IMG/VR virus record: IMGVR_UViG_3300020213_000034
Span: 611 to 64,610 of that record
DNA from: a virus
Lineage: Duplodnaviria > Caudoviricetes
Strand: one strand, 5' to 3'
DNA: 64,000 nt
The translations under genes and the position numbers were made by a program. Each line of letters starts with the position of its first letter. Positions within the stretch are counted from its first letter, which is position 1. Under the pieces are notes generated by a model. It was not told the DNA's origin, searched no databases, and saw only the letters and a list, made by a program, of their open reading frames with translations. This document shows positions 1,466-15,007 of the stretch, piece by piece.

Positions 1466-1477
1466 GGTGTGGCTTGT

Positions 1478-1696
1478 CTACTGGTTCTCCAGATTCCATC
1501 TGGCTTTCCATTTGGCTTGTTTCCGGACGTGAAAAAGACACGCCGCCACATCCCGCCGGCCAGCGCACGCTTCCGCGGCCCGTTTATGCCAAATGGCGCG
1601 ACCGAAGCAGAATGAAGCCCAATGCGGCCTAACAAAACGCCAGAGCCAACGCGGCCATTTGCCGCGTGATTGTGTATCAGGAATATTCGAGTGCAT
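1478..1696 (-). CDS. hypothetical protein (MHSNIPDTQSRGKWPRWLWRFVR...)
   Basis: ATG lies inside the attC-like site; the N-terminus is encoded by its right arm. Confidence 0.5.
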   Translation of the reverse strand: MHSNIPDTQSRGKWPRWLWRFVRPHWASFCFGRAIWHKRAAEACAGRRDVAACLFHVRKQAKWKARWNLENQ

Positions 1697-1749
1697 AGAG
1701 TGATTGCGGAGATTATAGCCCGCCGCGTGGCTCATCTTGGGTGTTGGGC
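1627..1749 (-). repeat. integron attC-like recombination site (123 bp)
   Basis: minus strand GCCCAAC-ACCCAA-GATGAGCCACGCGGC...GCCGCGTTGGCTCTGG-CGTTTT-GTTAGGC: RYYYAAC/GTTRRRY cores, spacers, and an imperfect inverted repeat with an extra base. Confidence 0.8.
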
Positions 1750-2036
1750 AGAGCGGACTCACAGGCTTGGATTGCAGTTTCGCGACTCGGCGAGATTCCG
1801 CTTTCGCAGCCAGCCATCCAGTTCCAGTTTCCGTCCGTTCGACGCTCAACTGACGCAGCGATGTTACGGAGCCGCCCCTCGTATTTGGTGCCAAGCGCCC
1901 AGATAGTTGGGCCGTGCCCTACGCACGCCCATTCAGTGTTCGTTTTATTGTTTTCGGAAGCCCAACCAGCCGCCAGACCGAACGCGCTTGGGCGTCCGTC
2001 CGGCGAGCGGGAGTCAGTGAGATGCGCGTCGGTCAT
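1713..2036 (-). CDS. hypothetical cassette-like gene between two attC-like sites
   Basis: ORF starts in the 1960-2050 site and ends (LPNTQDEPRGGL) in the 1627-1749 site. Confidence 0.5.
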   Translation of the reverse strand: MTDAHLTDSRSPDGRPSAFGLAAGWASENNKTNTEWACVGHGPTIWALGTKYEGRLRNIAASVERRTDGNWNWMAGCESGISPSRETAIQACESALPNTQDEPRGGL

Positions 2037-5767: not shown

Positions 5768-6346
5768 TTAAGGTTTGCAGCTGACTCCGGGGGCAGACCC
5801 GCGGCGTTCGCACTCTTCCTGAAGCAGAGCCAGACTGCGCCACGCAAGGGACCGCAGGTGCTCGAGTCTGTCTGGGGTGGAGGTGTTGCCAGCATCGATC
5901 AGGTGCCGCACGATGCAGTCGGCGTGATCGGGGCTTTTCCAGCGGGCCCAGTGCGGGCCTTTCACGTTACCCGGGGTGTGCTTCTGGTCCGATGTGAGCG
6001 AGTGGCGGGCGACCTCAAAAAGGGCAGCCGGGAAGTATCCAAGAAGACCCCGAAACATGGGGGCGGTCTTGCGCTCGTCGCTGTCCTGAGGAATAAAGTA
6101 TTTCTGTTCCGAAGACTGCAAGCATTCAGTTGTGTTCGGCTGGCTAATTCCGCCTTGCTGGGGGCAGGGGATTTTGCGATAAACCCTCCATCGCCCCTCC
6201 CCCTCCTCCATTCTCCCCACTGTGCGGCCAACACCCCAGCTAACAAACGCCTCGGGTATTCCGTCGCAGACATAAATGTCCCCTAGTGCACAAAGCACGT
6301 CAGGTTCAAGATGCTGGTATCCGCCGATGTGGGATGGTAGGTTCAT
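5768..6346 (-). CDS. dATP/dGTP diphosphohydrolase-like (DUF5664-type) protein
   Basis: RK..P.FRGLLGYFPAAL.EVA..S...DQKH.PG...HWAR.KS.DHADCI.RHL.D...HL..LAWR.LA.LQ. Confidence 0.7.
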   Translation of the reverse strand: MNLPSHIGGYQHLEPDVLCALGDIYVCDGIPEAFVSWGVGRTVGRMEEGEGRWRVYRKIPCPQQGGISQPNTTECLQSSEQKYFIPQDSDERKTAPMFRGLLGYFPAALFEVARHSLTSDQKHTPGNVKGPHWARWKSPDHADCIVRHLIDAGNTSTPDRLEHLRSLAWRSLALLQEECERRGSAPGVSCKP

Positions 6347-6582
6347 AGTGAAAGAATGTTCTCCATGTAGATTCCACGAGCCCCAGTGATTTTGTGCTCC
6401 ATCAGGGTATATTCGGTGGAAACCGGCATGCCGCCAAATAGGATCGCTTGCTTGAACTCGCGCCAAACTGTTTCGTGATTGAATCCGGCTATCCGGCGAA
6501 TCGGTTTGCAAATTGTTTCTACGCAAACTGGCTTGGATTGAACTGGCGTCATCTGCCGAGACCGTGCGGGTATATTTTTCAT
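6343..6582 (-). CDS. hypothetical protein
   Basis: 79-aa ORF coupled to the next gene. Confidence 0.55.
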   Translation of the reverse strand: MKNIPARSRQMTPVQSKPVCVETICKPIRRIAGFNHETVWREFKQAILFGGMPVSTEYTLMEHKITGARGIYMENILSL

Positions 6583-6613
6583 AGGTCAAAACTTTAGTGT
6601 TGCCACGGTCTTC

Positions 6614-9687: not shown

Positions 9688-10074
9688 TCAGTGACCGAGA
9701 ATAACGACAGAGTGAGAGCGAGGATGCCAGACAAACGAAACCGATGCCATCTTGTCGCAAAGAGCCCAGACGCGATCCGCAATCGGCCGCAAATTCGGGT
9801 GACGCACTTTCCAGAGCCGAGCGGCGCCATTGATGACCAAGCTCGAATCGCCCTTCACGAGAAGTTCGTAGCCGGAAAATCCGCGCTCTCCGGTGATGTC
9901 CAGCAAGCCTTGCTCGAGCGTCATCCACTCAGCCTGATTGTTGGTTATCGGGCTTCCGTATTCCTTTTGCACTATTTTAGCAACACCTTGCTCATCAGAG
10001 ACTTGGAAGGAACCATATCCGTTTCCCGGATTGGTTGGTCGAGCGCCTCCATCGAAAATCAGCGTCAGTTTCAT
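9688..10074 (-). CDS. rnhA: ribonuclease HI
   Basis: FDGGARP.NPG..G, TNNQAEW, GDS.LVI, W.PR. Confidence 0.85.
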   Translation of the reverse strand: MKLTLIFDGGARPTNPGNGYGSFQVSDEQGVAKIVQKEYGSPITNNQAEWMTLEQGLLDITGERGFSGYELLVKGDSSLVINGAARLWKVRHPNLRPIADRVWALCDKMASVSFVWHPRSHSVVILGH

Positions 10075-10190
10075 CTGCGGCCTTAATTGCTGTCAGCGGA
10101 CGATTTATGTAGCAAGGACAAAGAACATGAAGAATAATCAAAATAGTTGTTGACGACCCCGGCTGTTTTAGTATTTGGTCAGCGTATAAC

Positions 10191-10328
10191 TCTTGTGCTT
10201 CAGGTTTGAGCTGCAATCAGACCTACGTTTCCGGAAAAACTGCCGGCCGTCCAAACCACCACCGGGTGAGAGGGGCGCAAGTGATGTTCTTTTTTGTTTC
10301 GACCAGTTCGGCGGATTGCCGGCTGGTC
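10191..10328 (+). ncRNA. structured leader RNA of the tRNA array
   Basis: closing stem CTTGTGCTTC/GGGGCGCAAG enclosing AGGTTTGA/TCAGACCT, CCGG/CCGG and CACC/GGTG hairpins, then a GACCAGTTCGGC/GCCGGCTGGTC hairpin. Confidence 0.45.
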
Positions 10329-10331
10329 TCT

Positions 10332-10406
10332 GCCTCAGTGATGTAGAAGTCAACATACGACCTTGCCAAGGTTGATACCAGAGTGCGAATCTCTGCTGGG
10401 GCACCA
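10332..10406 (+). tRNA. tRNA-Gly(GCC)
   Basis: cloverleaf; anticodon loop TTGCCAA; encoded CCA. Confidence 0.9.
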
Positions 10407-10411
10407 ATTTT

Positions 10412-10538
10412 CTGAAGACGACGGACGAGGCTTTGGCCCGGCGAAAATCCGGGATGGGTAGCGAGCGGTCGTTTTCAGGTGTCCGATGGTAGCGCGGGTC
10501 ACTTGGCTTGCCACTGTGTCAGCGCGAGAGTAGGACCT
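10412..10538 (+). ncRNA. unknown structured RNA
   Basis: CTGAAGACGAC/GTCGTTTTCAG stem enclosing a T-arm-like CCCGG-CGAAAAT-CCGGG, followed by a second paired domain. Confidence 0.4.
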
Positions 10539-10539
10539 C

Positions 10540-10628
10540 GGGTCGATTCCGATAGCAGCGAATCGTTTGGCCTTTTAAGCCAACTGGAGAAATCCACGTC
10601 GGGGGTGCAAGTCCCTCTCGGCCCACCA
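10540..10628 (+). tRNA. tRNA-Lys(TTT) with long variable arm
   Basis: TTGGC-CTTTTAA-GCCAA; variable stem TGGA-GAAA-TCCA; CCA. Confidence 0.88.
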
Positions 10629-10634
10629 ATTTAT

Positions 10635-10709
10635 GGCGGTTTAGCCAAGCAGTAAGGCAGTGGCTTGCAAACCCACTATACGTCAGTGCAATTCTGACAA
10701 CCGCCTCCA
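10635..10709 (+). tRNA. tRNA-Cys(GCA)
   Basis: loop TTGCAAA; U73; CCA. Confidence 0.9.
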
Positions 10710-10713
10710 AACT

Positions 10714-10783
10714 AGGAAGAAATGCCGGCTCGAATCCGGCGCGGTCCTACGGACCGACTCGTCTAAGCGACAAGGCGCTTCCT
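10714..10783 (+). ncRNA. circularly permuted tRNA-like RNA (YrlA/Y-RNA-like topology)
   Basis: AGGAAG, AAAT, T-arm GCCGG-CTCGAAT-CCGGC, closed acceptor hairpin CGGTCC-TAC-GGACCG, D-arm GTCT-AAGCGACA-AGGC, CTTCCT. Confidence 0.65.
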
Positions 10784-10789
10784 CTCTTT

Positions 10790-10865
10790 AGGCCGAAAGC
10801 ATTGTTAGTAATGCACCTCCCTTGCACGGAGATTTCTGCGGGTGCAACTCCCGCTCGGTCCACCA
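10790..10865 (+). tRNA. tRNA-Ala(TGC)
   Basis: loop CTTGCAC; G3-U70; CCA. Confidence 0.9.
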
Positions 10866-10871
10866 ATTTAT

Positions 10872-10929
10872 GTTCCGGCCCACCTGACTTGTGGGCTTAA
10901 ATGATGTAGTCGTAAAACTAGGAACTCCA
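10872..10929 (+). ncRNA. small three-way-junction RNA ending in CCA
   Basis: GTTCC/GGAAC stem plus TCCA; GGCCCAC/GTGGGCT and TAGT/ACTA hairpins. Confidence 0.4.
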
Positions 10930-10930
10930 T

Positions 10931-11006
10931 GCATCGGTAATTCAGTGGCCAGAATGTCTGCCTTCCAAGCAGAACGTCGTGGGTTCGACTCCCACCCGGT
11001 GCTCCA
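10931..11006 (+). tRNA. tRNA-Gly(TCC)
   Basis: canonical cloverleaf; loop CTTCCAA; U73; CCA. Confidence 0.93.
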
Positions 11007-11012
11007 TTTCAT

Positions 11013-11097
11013 CCAGCAGTGCCAGAGCAGCAATTGGAGGTGGCTGTAAACCATCTGCCTTCGGGCTACGGAGGTGCAAGTCCTTCCTGCTGGACCA
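11013..11097 (+). tRNA. tRNA-Tyr(GTA), C1-G72, long variable arm
   Basis: CCAGCAG/CTGCTGG acceptor; loop CTGTAAA. Confidence 0.9.
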
Positions 11098-11104
11098 ATT
11101 TCAT

Positions 11105-11179
11105 GGGGGATTAGCTTAAATAGTAGAGCGCGTGCCTGATTAGCGCGTGGCGGTGGAGCGTTACCACCATCCCCTACCA
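11105..11179 (+). tRNA. tRNA-Ile(GAT)
   Basis: loop CTGATTA (U37); T-loop AGCGTTA; CCA. Confidence 0.88.
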
Positions 11180-11185
11180 TTTCAT

Positions 11186-11259
11186 AGGGCCGACAGGTAT
11201 AGTATCGGCAGGCACTCCAAACGCCTAGCGAGTTGGTGCGATTCCAACCGGCCTTGCCA
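11186..11259 (+). tRNA. tRNA-Trp(CCA)
   Basis: loop CTCCAAA; G73; weak D arm; CCA. Confidence 0.82.
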
Positions 11260-11260
11260 T

Positions 11261-11378
11261 TTCAGTATGATAGCAACGATAGCGACAGCGTATGTCGCAT
11301 TGTGGATGATCCTTCTTCCGCAGTGGCGACGTAAGAACTAAGACAACAACAGGGCCGCCGGACGCCGACGCCCTCTAA
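11261..11378 (+). ncRNA. unknown structured spacer RNA
   Basis: long hairpin TATGTCGC-ATTGTGGA/TCCGCAGT-GGCGACGTA plus an AGGGC/GCCCT hairpin. Confidence 0.35.
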
Positions 11379-11383
11379 ATTTC

Positions 11384-11459
11384 GGGACGGTAGCTGATGT
11401 AGTCATAGCGGCGGCCTGAAGAGCCGTTGAAGTTGGTGCAATTCCAACCCGTCCCACCA
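11384..11459 (+). tRNA. tRNA-Phe(GAA)
   Basis: loop CTGAAGA; CCA. Confidence 0.9.
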
Positions 11460-11465
11460 TTTTAT

Positions 11466-11537
11466 TGCCGGGAGATTTGGAATCCTCCAGCCTCATAAGC
11501 TCGGATGAAGTGAGTTCGATTCTCACCCCAGCATCCA
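11466..11537 (+). tRNA. tRNA with CAT anticodon (Met/fMet-like), miniature D arm
   Basis: loop CTCATAA; T arm GTGAG-TTCGATT-CTCAC; CCA. Confidence 0.78.
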
Positions 11538-11543
11538 TTTCAT

Positions 11544-11619
11544 CGGTCCAAAGTGTTACTTGGTCGCACACTCCGTTTGGGGCGGAATAGTCGGGGTTCA
11601 AATCCCCGTGGGCCGACCA
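11544..11619 (+). tRNA. tRNA-Pro(TGG)
   Basis: C1-G72; loop TTTGGGG; CCA. Confidence 0.92.
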
Positions 11620-11642
11620 CCTTCGTCAGCAATATCAACCCA

Positions 11643-11999
11643 ATGCTAGTCATTTTCATTCTCATGAATATCTCCTGCCCCCCGAATTACAAGACGTCCG
11701 TCTCCGCCAGCCCGCGCAATCAGTTCGGGATGCTTGGCGGATATACGCCTCCGCTTCAGTGGAGCGTTGATCCGACGTTTGGCTCGTTTATTGAAGACCC
11801 GGAGCATCCCGGCGACACAACCCTCGGCTTCTTCGTTGCGACAACCGATAATGCAAGGTATGGCCAAACGACCAATTATACGGTCACGGCCCAAACGGTC
11901 AACGGGCCAGTCGTGCAAAGTGGAGGCGTGCAGCTAAGTTTTCCGGAGGCCCCGGCTGACCATATTACGGTGACCGTGGGTCTACCAGTCCCTGCCTAA
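11643..11999 (+). CDS. hypothetical beta-rich (Ig-like?) protein inside the tRNA array
   Basis: ~118-aa ORF filling the gap between two tRNA-Pro genes; alternative start at 11664. Confidence 0.6.
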   Translation: MLVIFILMNISCPPNYKTSVSASPRNQFGMLGGYTPPLQWSVDPTFGSFIEDPEHPGDTTLGFFVATTDNARYGQTTNYTVTAQTVNGPVVQSGGVQLSFPEAPADHITVTVGLPVPA

Positions 12000-12009
12000 T
12001 GGCAGTTTT

Positions 12010-12085
12010 CCAGATGTGGTGCCAAAGGCTGGCGACTCCGCTCGGAACGGAGATTATGCAGGTTCGAGTCCTGTCATCTGGACCA
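12010..12085 (+). tRNA. tRNA-Pro(CGG)
   Basis: loop CTCGGAA; CCA. Confidence 0.9.
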
Positions 12086-12089
12086 TTTC

Positions 12090-12167
12090 AAATCAGCGGT
12101 GAGCCGGCGCGAATCCGGCCTGCACCTCGGCCAAGGTTTTTCGCGGGCTCCGCGAATCCGCTGATTT
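12090..12167 (+). ncRNA. unknown four-way RNA with 5'-proximal T-arm
   Basis: AAATCAGCGG/CCGCTGATTT stem; GCCGG-CGCGAAT-CCGGC; TTCGCGG/CCGCGAA. Confidence 0.5.
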
Positions 12168-12177
12168 TCACTTTCAC

Positions 12178-12251
12178 GGGTTATTGTTGAATGAGTATCT
12201 TGTCCCTCTGTCTAAGGGACGTAGCGAGTGCGAGTCTCGCATAGCCCGCCA
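12178..12251 (+). tRNA. tRNA-Asp(GTC), unpaired D region
   Basis: loop CTGTCTA; G73; CCA. Confidence 0.82.
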
Positions 12252-12255
12252 TTTC

Positions 12256-12331
12256 CCACGATTAGTTCAACGGCTAGAACGGCAGTCCTACACACTGCGC
12301 GCAGAGGGTTCGACTCCTTCATCGTGGACCA
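12256..12331 (+). tRNA. tRNA-Val(TAC)
   Basis: loop CCTACAC (C33); CCA. Confidence 0.88.
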
Positions 12332-12336
12332 TTTAT

Positions 12337-12415
12337 TGCAAGGAAGGCAAATCGGTGAACGCCGGCAGTCTGTTAAACTGTGTCGTAGATGGTTCGACCC
12401 CATCCCTTGCAGCCA
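12337..12415 (+). tRNA. tRNA-Asn(GTT)
   Basis: loop CTGTTAA; G73; CCA. Confidence 0.9.
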
Positions 12416-12419
12416 TTTC

Positions 12420-12495
12420 GGGAGTGTAGCTCAGCAGTCAGAGCATTCGGTTGTTAACCGACAGCGCGCAGGTGCGAATCCTGCCACTCCCTCCA
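12420..12495 (+). tRNA. tRNA with GTT anticodon but U73 (identity uncertain)
   Basis: GGGAGTG/CACTCCC-T-CCA; loop TTGTTAA. Confidence 0.82.
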
Positions 12496-12496
12496 T

Positions 12497-12572
12497 TCTC
12501 GCGTAGCTCAGTAGTTAGAGCGCCTCCTTGACATGGAGTAGGTCGCTGGTGCGATTCCAGCTGCGAGAACCA
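12497..12572 (+). tRNA. tRNA-Val(GAC)
   Basis: loop TTGACAT; CCA. Confidence 0.9.
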
Positions 12573-12577
12573 TTTGA

Positions 12578-12637
12578 GCCCTTGGACAATACCGTGTGCC
12601 GCATCCCGGCAGCTGTGCGACCCAGCAATCCAACGGC
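12578..12637 (+). ncRNA. small structured RNA / degenerate tRNA-like element
   Basis: GCC-TTGGA/TCCAA-GGC stem; TGCCG/CGGCA; T-like GCTG-TGCGACC-CAGC. Confidence 0.4.
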
Positions 12638-12643
12638 GGTTAC

Positions 12644-12718
12644 GGGCCTATAGTGTAACAGTCAGCACACGGAGCTTTGACCTCTTGAGACTAGGTGCAA
12701 ATCCTAGTGGGCCTGCCA
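12644..12718 (+). tRNA. tRNA-Gln(TTG)
   Basis: loop CTTTGAC; G73; CCA. Confidence 0.9.
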
Positions 12719-12725
12719 ATTTCAT

Positions 12726-12800
12726 GCCTCGTTCGTATATCGGCAATTACGCCGCTCTCTGAAAGCGGACAGGGTGGTTCGATTCCATCACGGGGCGCCA
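12726..12800 (+). tRNA. tRNA-Gln(CTG)
   Basis: loop CTCTGAA; G73; CCA. Confidence 0.9.
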
Positions 12801-13022
12801 TTTCAATCGCGGGCATTCGCTGTCTTGTCTATCTGGCGGGATAGAGGAAGTTCGCGTCTGCACAACACGTCGAGGCAGGCTCACGCCGTTACGACCTCAC
12901 GACCGCAGCAAGCCAAACAGAACGAGGGGTGAGTGTTGCTCCTATGACTTCGGGTTGGCGCTCAGACAAATGAATGCCTCCTGCTTCGGCAGAAGACAGA
13001 AACGCGGCTACAGCGATTGAAA
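12801..13022 (+). ncRNA. rnpB: minimal RNase P RNA (catalytic domain intact, specificity domain nearly absent)
   Basis: P1 TTTCAATCGC/GCGATTGAAA; P2 GGGCATTC/GAATGCCT; P3; CR-I GAGGAAGTTCGCGT pairing with CR-V ACAGAAACGCGGCTA (P4 with bulged U); P5; P6; P15 with GGU; CR-IV AGACAAATG; P19 CTGC-TTCG-GCAG. Confidence 0.88.
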
Positions 13023-13029
13023 ACTTTAC

Positions 13030-13104
13030 GGACCACAAGCATTAACAGTGATGCACTAGGCTCTTACCCTTGGGAACACGGCGCAATACCGTGGCGGTCC
13101 ACCA
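13030..13104 (+). tRNA. tRNA-Lys(CTT)
   Basis: loop CTCTTAC; CCA. Confidence 0.9.
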
Positions 13105-13106
13105 AT

Positions 13107-13160
13107 TTCTGCCAGTTGCCGGATACCCAACGCGGTTCCCGGAACCTTCTTCTGGCAGGA
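13107..13160 (+). ncRNA. small structured spacer element
   Basis: TTCTGCCAG/CTGGCAGGA stem enclosing GGTTCC/GGAACC. Confidence 0.35.
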
Positions 13161-13164
13161 TCAT

Positions 13165-13236
13165 GGCCGGCGATTCAGCAATCCACAGACTCTCATAAGG
13201 TCAGTGAATCCGGGGCAGCACCGGAGCCAGCTTCCA
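13165..13236 (+). tRNA. tRNA with CAT anticodon (Met or Ile2), reduced D arm
   Basis: loop CTCATAA; T-loop GGCAGCA; CCA. Confidence 0.75.
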
Positions 13237-13241
13237 ATTTC

Positions 13242-13319
13242 GGTCTAAATGCGGAGATAGTCACCGCGCATCATTGGTAATGATGAATAGGCTGGGTGCG
13301 AATCCCAGTTAGACCTCCA
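13242..13319 (+). tRNA. tRNA-Thr(GGT)
   Basis: loop TTGGTAA; U73; CCA. Confidence 0.9.
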
Positions 13320-13325
13320 GTTTAC

Positions 13326-13409
13326 GGGGATATGGTGGAACGGCAGACACAGTTGCCTTAGAAGCATCCGACGAAAGTCATGGGGGTTCAAATCCCTCTA
13401 TCCCTACCA
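13326..13409 (+). tRNA. tRNA-Leu(TAG)
   Basis: loop CTTAGAA; long variable arm; CCA. Confidence 0.92.
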
Positions 13410-13415
13410 ATTTAT

Positions 13416-13490
13416 GGCCGATTCGACAACCAGCTAAGTCCTCGCCCTTTCAAGGCGAAGTAGTGGGGGCAGCACCCACATCGGCTACCA
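13416..13490 (+). tRNA. tRNA-Glu(TTC)
   Basis: loop CTTTCAA; CCA. Confidence 0.9.
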
Positions 13491-13495
13491 TTTAT

Positions 13496-13570
13496 GGCCT
13501 GTTCGTCTATAAGTCAGGACGGTTGCTTCTCAAGCATCAAAGGCGGGAGCGTTACCCGCACAGGCTACCA
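13496..13570 (+). tRNA. tRNA-Glu(CTC)
   Basis: loop TTCTCAA; CCA. Confidence 0.88.
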
Positions 13571-13571
13571 T

Positions 13572-13805
13572 TTGATTGGAACTACCCAGATGCGCTGGGA
13601 CGTGGCAGCAGGAAGCTGAAGGGGATGCGCAAGCGAGTCGGGTCATGGCTGACAAGGGCGAAACTCCGTTACACTAAGGCACTCCCAGAGATCGTAAGCT
13701 CTGGCTCCGCGCTGCAGGGAAGCATTTTCAAATGAGCGGTCAACCGAATGCCATCCCTCCGCTACACGGGCCTCTCGGCGGGATGCAAAACCCGCTTTCA
13801 ATCAA
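13572..13805 (+). ncRNA. unknown ~235-nt multi-helix RNA
   Basis: terminal stem TTGATTGGAA/TTTCAATCAA; nested GTGGC/GCTAC and GGGGATG/CATCCCT; hairpins CCCAG/CTGGG, CAGC/GCTG, CCAGAG/CTCTGG, GCATT/AATGC, GCGGG/CCCGC. Confidence 0.6.
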
Positions 13806-13808
13806 TCT

Positions 13809-13892
13809 CGGCTTGTGGTGGAACAGCAGACACAGGGCGCTCAAAACGCCCCGCCTAACCGCGTGAGGGTGCGATTCCCTCCTTGCCGACCA
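13809..13892 (+). tRNA. tRNA-Leu(CAA)
   Basis: loop CTCAAAA; long variable arm; CCA. Confidence 0.9.
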
Positions 13893-13899
13893 ATTTCAT

Positions 13900-13990
13900 A
13901 GTCTCGTGTCCCAGCGGACCCGGAGGATTTATACCCCTCAGTGCGCCAGATTAGCGCCGTGACTGGGGGCAGCACCCAGCGGGACTACCA
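13900..13990 (+). tRNA. tRNA-Ile(TAT) with long variable arm
   Basis: GAGGA-TTTATAC-CCCTC; variable stem GCGC/GCGC; AGTCTCG/CGGGACT acceptor; CCA. Confidence 0.8.
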
Positions 13991-13994
13991 TTTC

Positions 13995-14066
13995 GCAGAT
14001 GCCTTCAGCAAGGCAGCGGCTTTCGTAAAGCTGATGAAGTCGGGGCAGCACCGACCTTCTGCTCCA
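13995..14066 (+). tRNA. tRNA-Thr(CGT)
   Basis: loop TTCGTAA; U73; CCA. Confidence 0.8.
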
Positions 14067-14072
14067 TTTCAT

Positions 14073-14146
14073 GTTGGCTTGTATTCAGCAATCCTACCGC
14101 CCTTGTAGCGCGGAAGAAGCCGGGGCAGCACCGGCAGCCAACTCCA
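14073..14146 (+). tRNA. tRNA-Thr(TGT)
   Basis: loop CTTGTAG; U73; CCA. Confidence 0.8.
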
Positions 14147-14152
14147 TTTCAT

Positions 14153-14231
14153 CAGGGGAAGTAGTGTAACGCAGCAAACACTGGAGATTGTGAACCTCCG
14201 ATTGTGGGTGCAAATCCCGCCCCCCTGACCA
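14153..14231 (+). tRNA. tRNA-His(GTG) lacking G-1/C73
   Basis: loop TTGTGAA; acceptor CAGGGG/CCCCTG; A73; CCA. Confidence 0.85.
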
Positions 14232-14235
14232 TTTC

Positions 14236-14310
14236 CCCGTCATAGCTCAAGAGACAGAGCAAGCCCCTGCGAAGGGCGAGATTGCAGTGCGAGTCTGCAT
14301 GATGGGACCA
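14236..14310 (+). tRNA. tRNA-Arg(GCG)
   Basis: loop CTGCGAA; CCA. Confidence 0.88.
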
Positions 14311-14314
14311 TTTC

Positions 14315-14391
14315 GTCTCGTTACATCAATCATATAGACCCGGGCCTTCTAAGCCTTGTGGATGCTGGTGAGAGCCCAGCACGAGACACCA
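14315..14391 (+). tRNA. tRNA-Arg(TCT)
   Basis: loop CTTCTAA; T-loop TGAGAGC; CCA. Confidence 0.85.
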
Positions 14392-14394
14392 ATT

Positions 14395-14464
14395 TGCGGA
14401 TACTTATTGGGGTAGTGCCCAAGCCCAAAGGACGGCACCAAGTCCGAGTAAGGTAATATCCGTG
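14395..14464 (+). ncRNA. long interrupted hairpin RNA
   Basis: GCGGATA/TATCCGT, CTTATT/AGTAAG and GTGCC/GGCAC nested stems. Confidence 0.4.
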
Positions 14465-14474
14465 ATATATTTTT

Positions 14475-14549
14475 GCTCCATTCGTCCAATGTACAGGGCC
14501 TGCGTCTTCGGAACGCATGATGAGGGTTAGATTCCTTCATGGAGCGCCA
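14475..14549 (+). tRNA. tRNA-Arg(TCG)
   Basis: loop CTTCGGA; CCA. Confidence 0.9.
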
Positions 14550-14567
14550 CTTTATAAAAACCATCAC

Positions 14568-14642
14568 TCTCTTGTAGCACAAAGGACAGTGCGGCGGTTT
14601 CCTAAACCGTTGATGCGGGTTCAAGTCCCGCCGAGAGAACCA
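14568..14642 (+). tRNA. tRNA-Arg(CCT)
   Basis: loop TTCCTAA; CCA. Confidence 0.92.
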
Positions 14643-14645
14643 TTT

Positions 14646-14731
14646 GGAGACGCAATCCAGCGGGGCTGGAACGGGCCTTGAAAACCCAGTGACGCGAAAG
14701 CGTTGGGATTCGATTTCTCGCGTCTCCGCCA
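14646..14731 (+). tRNA. tRNA-Ser(TGA), 8/4 fold
   Basis: 8-bp acceptor GGAGACGC/GCGTCTCC; 4-bp T stem; G73. Confidence 0.88.
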
Positions 14732-14735
14732 ATTT

Positions 14736-14823
14736 GGACAGTCAATCATGCAAGGCATGGCTCGCCCTCGAAAAGCGAAGGACGCAGCAATGCGTTGGGG
14801 TGCAACTCCTCGGCTCTCCGCCA
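14736..14823 (+). tRNA. tRNA-Ser(CGA), 8/4 fold
   Basis: GGACAGTC/GGCTCTCC; 6-bp D stem; loop CTCGAAA; G73. Confidence 0.88.
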
Positions 14824-14824
14824 C

Positions 14825-14912
14825 GGAAGGTTAACTGCTCAGGGAGCAGAACGCTCTGGAAAGGCGCTTGTTCGGGAAACCGGATGGGATTCGACTTCTC
14901 AGCCTTCCGCCA
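14825..14912 (+). tRNA. tRNA-Ser(GGA), 8/4 fold
   Basis: GGAAGGTT/AGCCTTCC; D stem CTGCTC/GAGCAG; loop CTGGAAA. Confidence 0.88.
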
Positions 14913-14916
14913 TTCT

Positions 14917-15007
14917 GGAGAGTGAACCAAGGCAGCCTTGGGATTCTTTGCTAAAGAAATCGTTCGGGCTTGACCCGGATTGGGGGCAGCACCTACTCTC
15001 TCCGCCA
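14917..15007 (+). tRNA. tRNA-Ser(GCT), 8/4 fold
   Basis: GGAGAGTG/CTCTCTCC; D stem CCAAGG/CCTTGG; loop TTGCTAA. Confidence 0.88.

Follow-up and report, generated by a model that had tools for sequence, protein, structure and literature searches.

The segment of about 235 nt found between tRNA-Glu(CTC) and tRNA-Leu(CAA) in a phage tRNA array, i.e. positions 13572 to 13805 of the window (the whole 64,000-nt stretch of DNA analysed here), is read, with a confidence that stops a little short of even, as a composite inter-tRNA spacer transcript and not as one dedicated structured RNA. It would consist of a conserved 48-nt module with two hairpins (13575-13622), of about 100 nt of strain-specific and poorly structured filler in which a 36-codon ORF would have arisen by happenstance, and of a duplicate, now decayed, of the stem-closed unit found intact at 12082-12176. 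Only the 5' module, perhaps together with the end helix, seems to be under selection. The earlier note on this DNA had proposed a novel non-coding RNA or ribozyme; we retain from it a non-tRNA unit that belongs to no described family and has helix-sealed ends, but not a single multi-helix RNA of ~235 nt.

The DNA studied represents nearly all of a 64,610-base IMG/VR virus record (CheckV completeness ~94%). A dense tRNA array occupies ~10,330-14,730 (~4.4 kb) on the + strand, with genes on the - strand to its left and on the + strand to its right. Twenty-one tRNAs were detected in it by ARAGORN, Rfam added more, and further odd tRNA-like genes are present besides; nearly every unit ends with an encoded CCA followed by (A)TTT. 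Both tRNAs flanking the element were located by Rfam or ARAGORN, in agreement with the earlier placement of the element in this gap, ARAGORN detecting tRNA-Glu(CTC) only with a lowered threshold. The features considered are the following.

13496-13570, + strand: tRNA-Glu(CTC), upstream neighbour (Rfam tRNA, 37.5 bits over 13496-13567; encoded CCA at 13568-13570)
13572-13581, + strand: 5' strand of the closing helix, TTGATTGGAA (direct reading)
13575-13622, + strand: 48-nt 5' module, conserved and carrying two hairpins; no other part is kept in contigs of runs X7 and X9
13585-13599, + strand: hairpin A, CCCAG-ATGCG-CTGGG (pair probability 0.99)
13606-13618, + strand: hairpin B, CAGC-AGGAA-GCTG (pair probability 0.72)
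13623-13721, + strand: strain-specific, poorly structured middle (z +2.04), replaced by other letters in the contigs of X7 and X9 that join across
13625-13735, + strand: ORF of 36 codons, ATG to TGA, of doubtful coding status
13722-13808, + strand: degraded paralogue of a junction plus stem-closed unit U3 (alignment to 12079-12182)
13778-13795, + strand: T-arm-like hairpin with an 8-nt loop
13796-13805, + strand: 3' strand of the closing helix, TTTCAATCAA (direct reading), followed by TCT and no CCA
13809-13892, + strand: tRNA-Leu(CAA), downstream neighbour (ARAGORN)
12082-12176, + strand: intact stem-closed unit U3, after tRNA-Pro(CGG) (z -2.87; 2 of 200 shuffles as stable)
12802-13026, + strand: mini RNase P RNA (RNaseP_arch match over 12802-13021, 31.4 bits, E 1.2e-7, below the gathering score)
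10411-10480, 10713-10788, 12086-12176 and 13107-13160: short non-tRNA units with terminal stems
13206-13220, 13462-13478, 13962-13978, 14040-14054 and 14120-14134: sites of odd tRNA T-loops

The two ends of the element are held by a 10-bp stem that is real, as had been claimed: TTGATTGGAA pairs with TTTCAATCAA over its whole length with one G-T pair. A terminal helix of at least 10 bp was obtained in 3 of 2000 dinucleotide shuffles, i.e. it is rarer than chance, and its mean pair probability in the Boltzmann ensemble is 0.83. The T-arm-like hairpin adjoining it, GCGGG-ATGCAAAA-CCCGC, was confirmed as well (pair probability 0.99), and its loop contains TGCAA, which is also found in many T-loops of the array. 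With A13575 as the first position, the closing stem has an inner part of 7 bp (ATTGGAA/TTTCAAT, one G-U) that lies directly against the 5 bp of this hairpin (GCGGG/CCCGC), and the two form a 12-bp coaxial stack that corresponds to a tRNA top half. A 7-bp acceptor directly on a 5-bp T stem is therefore present as in a tRNA, with a loop of 8 nt and not 7, and the encoded CCA plus (A)TTT of the tRNAs of this array is missing. Among 1200 T-arm-like hairpins from ~120 other phage arrays, a 7-bp partner located 110-460 nt upstream beside a unit boundary was found for 20, mostly by chance or through repeats. The 7-bp closure alone is thus weak evidence, and the significant version is the one of 10 bp.

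Folding statistics gave no such signal for the element taken as a whole. Its minimum of -79.1 kcal/mol equals that of shuffled sequences (-78.9 +/- 4.9; z -0.05), 94 of 200 shuffles being equally stable. The 5' 50 nt and the 3' 87 nt reach z values of -1.35 and -1.05, respectively, and the middle 99 nt are at z +2.04, with 199 of 200 shuffles at least as stable. The intact short stem-closed units at 10411-10480, 12086-12176 and 13107-13160 have z values of about -2.9 to -3.0; these mini-RNAs share with the element an end-to-end helix design and the same array, but the element greatly exceeds them in length, lacks a CCA end and folds far more poorly. Nested long-range helices had been described inside the element (GTGGC/GCTAC and GGGGATG/CATCCCT): the complementary words do exist, with pair probabilities of 0.00 and 0.01, and the helices are not favoured. 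The count of at least six hairpins is what a random sequence of like composition would give; since whole-element folding does not differ from that of shuffles, it carries no signal beyond composition. The end closure and three hairpins are real, and an ornate multi-helix RNA is not.

The 3' third has a paralogue within the array. Positions 13722-13808 align with 12079-12182, a region that includes U3, with 64 identical columns out of 81 aligned. The alignment score is 38, against 14.7 +/- 4.8 for dinucleotide shuffles, of which 1 in 3000 reached it. As the pair was found by a scan of the array, in which the seed match was reached array-wide in 13 of 300 shuffles, its significance after a rough correction for ~50 units is ~0.02, not 0.0003. 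The decayed copy is much less stable than U3 and no longer has the first hairpin or a portion of the unit's own closing strand. This copy is where the element has its T-arm-like hairpin and the 3' strand of its 10-bp closing stem. The unit in the U3 position of the tRNA array of another uncultured phage (L242) gave no alignment. A decayed tRNA-Pro in the stretch preceding the U3-like copy was considered and set aside as not demonstrable, 96 of 1000 shuffles doing as well.

Metagenome runs were compared with the window. The whole DNA is present in five runs labelled as hypersaline lake or microbial mat, which are possible sources of the record, and a sixth (X6) contains 0.85 of the sampled words, with identical contigs. 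Relative contigs come from three other runs, their joints being called at 80% likeness, a level at which cross-organism artefacts are possible. A 473-nt contig of X7 shows 2 differences over 13321-13498 (178 nt, i.e. ~99% identity upstream), skips 13499-13573, tracks the element for 49 nt from 13574 and continues with 136 nt that are unlike it; tRNA-Glu(CTC) thus appears to be absent in this strain. Strains differ by the gain and loss of whole array units. In a 1433-nt contig of the same run, 280 letters lie between 13573 and 14000, versus 426 in the window. A syntenic 19.7-kb contig of X9 matches 13379-13436, 13575-13622 (5 differences) and 13948-14152, with 370 other letters after the module versus 325 in the window, and a 256-nt contig of X9 matches 13580-13624 with 3 differences. 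In all these contigs the likeness ends at ~13622. The 5' module is kept at ~90% identity, the neighbouring true tRNAs at less than 80%, and it is better preserved than the contig's two tRNA-Glu genes. At 80% likeness, nothing from runs X7, X8 or X9 covered 13672-13779, a gap that is counted only where contigs join across it. The remainder of the element in these relatives may be diverged but homologous, closing with a complementary 3' strand into a full-length unit. Against the composite reading, the 10-bp helix at the exact ends of the interval, together with the kept 5' module, argues for selection on at least part of the unit.

Wider searches returned no further relative. Neither the whole element nor its 5' module had a homologue in Rfam, in 50,697 GenBank phage records or in ~250 fetched loci, and ~1.2 Mb of similar phage arrays likewise gave nothing. 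Array-style patterns gave ~240 loci, in which blastn found no homologue of the element and a covariance model of the 5' module had no match. The pattern built on the odd T-loop (GGGGCAGCACC, 9-13 nt, CCATTT), i.e. a GGCAGCA-type T-arm followed by CCA-TTT, occurs in at least 119 IMG/VR stretches, many of them with large arrays. Relatives of the neighbouring exonuclease and DnaC-like proteins, 26-55% identical, were found at 3 viral and 9 metagenome loci with 0 tRNAs. Exact-word scans gave 0 matches for the 3' end of the element and, for a conserved tRNA-like gene, 0 in viral contigs and 0 in genome contigs. A 19-mer taken from the 5' module had eight matches in genome contigs, which were rejected as chance, being inside or antisense to ordinary genes; several fall at the protein motifs WDVAAG or LGRGSR.

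The element was further compared with known RNA families. Rfam searches of the 64 kb, of 6 kb and of 248 nt, at the gathering score and at E<=10, placed no family on it, the sole weak match being a snoRNA (10.7 bits, E 7.5). This bears out the earlier opinion that it is no recognisable tmRNA, SRP or 6S RNA. It has neither a cloverleaf at the 29-bit gathering score of the tRNA model (RF00005) nor a credible ARAGORN call in the tRNA, intron, tmRNA, mitochondrial and lowered-threshold modes; the -ps80 setting produced only a 'tRNA-Phe(aaa)' at ~13633-13712. YrlA (RF02553) has weak matches only elsewhere, at 14499-14622 and 12467-12521, and the TROVE domain (Rsr/Ro) is absent from the 30 ORFs of the window scanned against Pfam. 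A strongly diverged or decayed tmRNA is scarcely credible, even if the element resembles tmRNA (RF00023) in having an acceptor-like stem and a T-arm-like hairpin, i.e. a tRNA-like end closure, around a large insert, and even if arrays of the same style from two other phages (L146 and L165) carry true tmRNAs with an unusual TGCGA-type T-loop. As a positive control, the latter score 106 bits in Rfam, and neither Rfam nor ARAGORN gave a tmRNA match on the element, lowered thresholds included. The hallmarks of the family, G3-U70, the 3' CCA and a tag reading frame, are all absent: the stem has U-A or G-C as its third pair, according to the register, and not G-U, and no tag-like frame with a hydrophobic end exists. 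These tmRNA genes lie within the tRNA arrays, at 13710-14094 in L146 and at 1467-1848 (- strand) in L165; that of L146 is undetected by ARAGORN, for which its TGCGA T-loop may be the explanation.

The array also encodes a mini RNase P RNA, 550 nt upstream of the element. Its catalytic core is intact, with readable P4 strands and ACAGAAA, and its specificity domain (S-domain) is replaced by a short hairpin. Two other uncultured phages, very different in G+C, have homologues of it in their tRNA arrays: L242 (5803-6127) and L254 (~880-1190, - strand). Full-text literature searches yielded no paper on a phage-encoded RNase P RNA or on the element; PMC11143913 provides background on CCA and RNase P substrates. 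The closing strands of the element had been likened to those of RNase P P1. They are indeed similar, but the polarity is swapped: TTTCAATC, the 3' strand in the element, is identical to the 5' strand of the RNase P RNA (12801-12808), and the likeness rests on TTTCAAT, a common post-CCA spacer word of the array. Pairwise alignment of the two RNAs recovered the end strands only, and models of RNase P RNA (Rfam clan CL00002), with its P4 strands and catalytic core, had no match on the element at E<=10.

It is extremely improbable that the element acts in trans with this RNase P RNA, as its detached specificity domain or as a regulator docking through a swap of P1-type strands. Such a partner would suit an RNase P RNA without S-domain encoded so close by; the two RNAs have end strands in common (TTTCAATC / GATTG-AA), the element is similar in size to the bacterial type A specificity domain that its neighbour is missing, and it holds loose look-alikes of CR-II and CR-III in the right order, GTGGCAGCAGGAAG then AAGGGCGAAAC. 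The common strand is, however, the ordinary spacer word mentioned above, and the look-alikes break invariant positions (CAGAAA becomes CAGGAA and GGGTGAAA becomes GGGCGAAA), so that the CR-II (GTGCCACAGAAA) and CR-III (AAGGGTGAAA..GTAAGAG) cores in a P10-P14 architecture are not found. A covariance model was built from the S-domains of 34 type-A RNase P RNAs, reduced to 32 by dropping two of more than 200 nt, and positions 10000-15000 were searched with filters off; on the element it returned nothing S-domain-like, only a 0-bit hairpin. In addition, the element has no homologue in L242 and L254, the two phages with a homologous mini RNase P RNA, and its duplex energy with the RNase P RNA does not differ from that of shuffles (89 of 200), a test poorly suited to long RNAs. 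The comparison with RNase P or another ribozyme finds no support, as the fold is at the chance level, only 48 nt are kept, the last third is a decayed duplicate and the S-domain model fails. A related proposal combines the 5' module with the end helix and the T-arm-like hairpin into a CCA-less mimic of a tRNA top half, used with the S-domain-less RNase P RNA of the phage; its role would then be that of docking cofactor, competitor or decoy for host enzymes that target tRNAs. We regard this as very improbable.

Two other explanations take the element to be a functional gene. A lineage-restricted, stable non-coding RNA of ~235 nt, excised from the tRNA precursor, is rather unlikely. It would be of the kind of RNAC and RNAD of phage T4, two small RNAs of the T4 tRNA region whose biological role is given as unknown in PMC3014915, and would mimic a tRNA top half by its 7-bp stem and T-arm-like hairpin, the D and anticodon arms being replaced by a cargo domain. 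The element does lie, like RNAC and RNAD, as a non-tRNA unit within a phage tRNA cluster and would presumably be released by the same processing; it differs in showing no sequence likeness to anything in the 50,697 phage records and in being a patchwork with only 48 conserved nt. The rarity of the terminal helix in shuffles, the T-like hairpin abutting it as in a tRNA and bearing the TGCAA of the array T-loops, a 5' module that is conserved in contigs from two further runs, and the well-folded, likewise stem-closed state of other non-tRNA units of the array all speak for such an RNA. What weighs against it is the lack of any thermodynamic signal, an interior that differs even in a near-identical strain, a 3' third that is a degraded copy of another unit, and the absence of the CCA encoded by all tRNAs of the array; moreover, T-arm-like hairpins with a 7-bp closure also occur in other arrays (20 of 1200), mostly by chance or through repeats. 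A small protein gene is improbable: the ORF at 13625-13735, with its basic N-terminus, would be functional and the conserved 48 nt would be its leader. In its favour, the relatives lose conservation 2 nt ahead of the ATG, structure is unusually scarce in the ORF region (z +2.04), and the array already has another ORF (11643-11999). Its codon score of -0.5 falls between two sets of windows of phage genes, 2.2 SD above the out-of-frame mean (-21.7 +/- 9.8) and 1.8 SD below the in-frame mean (13.1 +/- 7.6). The start lies in a G-rich context, GAAGGGGATG, unlike the A/T-rich sequences upstream of 13 listed gene starts of the phage. A phmmer search of 1.84 billion representatives retrieved only the record's own 90-aa gene call, which forms a one-member cluster, and tblastn on phage records gave no match to the ORF below E 1. 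The alternative raised in the earlier note, homologues that conserve a reading frame and not base pairs, did not materialise, as no conserved frame was found.

Under the composite spacer reading, the element would be transcribed together with the tRNA array and should be freed when the flanking tRNAs are processed. Trimming behind the CCA of tRNA-Glu and an RNase P cut before tRNA-Leu would leave a piece of ~235 nt, whose ends would be tied by the 10-bp helix stacked on the T-arm-like hairpin. Tied ends would prevent mispairing with the neighbouring pre-tRNAs and slow exonucleases. If the rule by which RNase P measures a 12-bp acceptor/T-stem applies, a cut would be predicted before A13575, where conservation begins.

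The element alone matters little; greater importance attaches to the mini RNase P RNA of this locus, which, like the odd T-loops of the tRNAs, is more notable than the element. The case described here indicates that small stem-closed units are duplicated, swapped and eroded, that phage tRNA arrays grow and decay in this way, and that the debris can mimic an ornate RNA. The element would gain weight if its 5' module and tRNA-like closure acted with the S-domain-less phage RNase P RNA and, were the top-half mimic true, its variable interior would be a swappable cargo on a natural tRNA scaffold.

Several other features of the array and of the surrounding genes were observed. Many array tRNAs have non-canonical T-loops, with GGCAGCA or TGCAA/TGCGA replacing TTCGA; their D-loops lack the usual GG and are rich in CAGCA. 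The altered tRNA elbow and an RNase P RNA without the domain that reads the elbow may be connected. T-arm-like hairpins of the CCGG-CNCGAAT-CCGG type occur in 3 of the short stem-closed units. The ORF at 11643-11999, in the middle of the array, encodes 118 aa with no Pfam or PHROG match. Outside the array, the ORF at 5768-6589 (- strand) carries a dATP/dGTP diphosphohydrolase N-terminal domain (PF18909, 28.1 bits), a family presumably tied to phages with modified purines. A Shine-Dalgarno sequence is absent before 13 of the 13 listed phage gene starts, the upstream regions being A/T-rich, which hints at a host without Shine-Dalgarno-led initiation. Finally, long-arm (type II) tRNA-like genes are located at 13898-13993 and 14646-14727, the second of which scores 36 bits on the tRNA-Sec model, under the gathering score.
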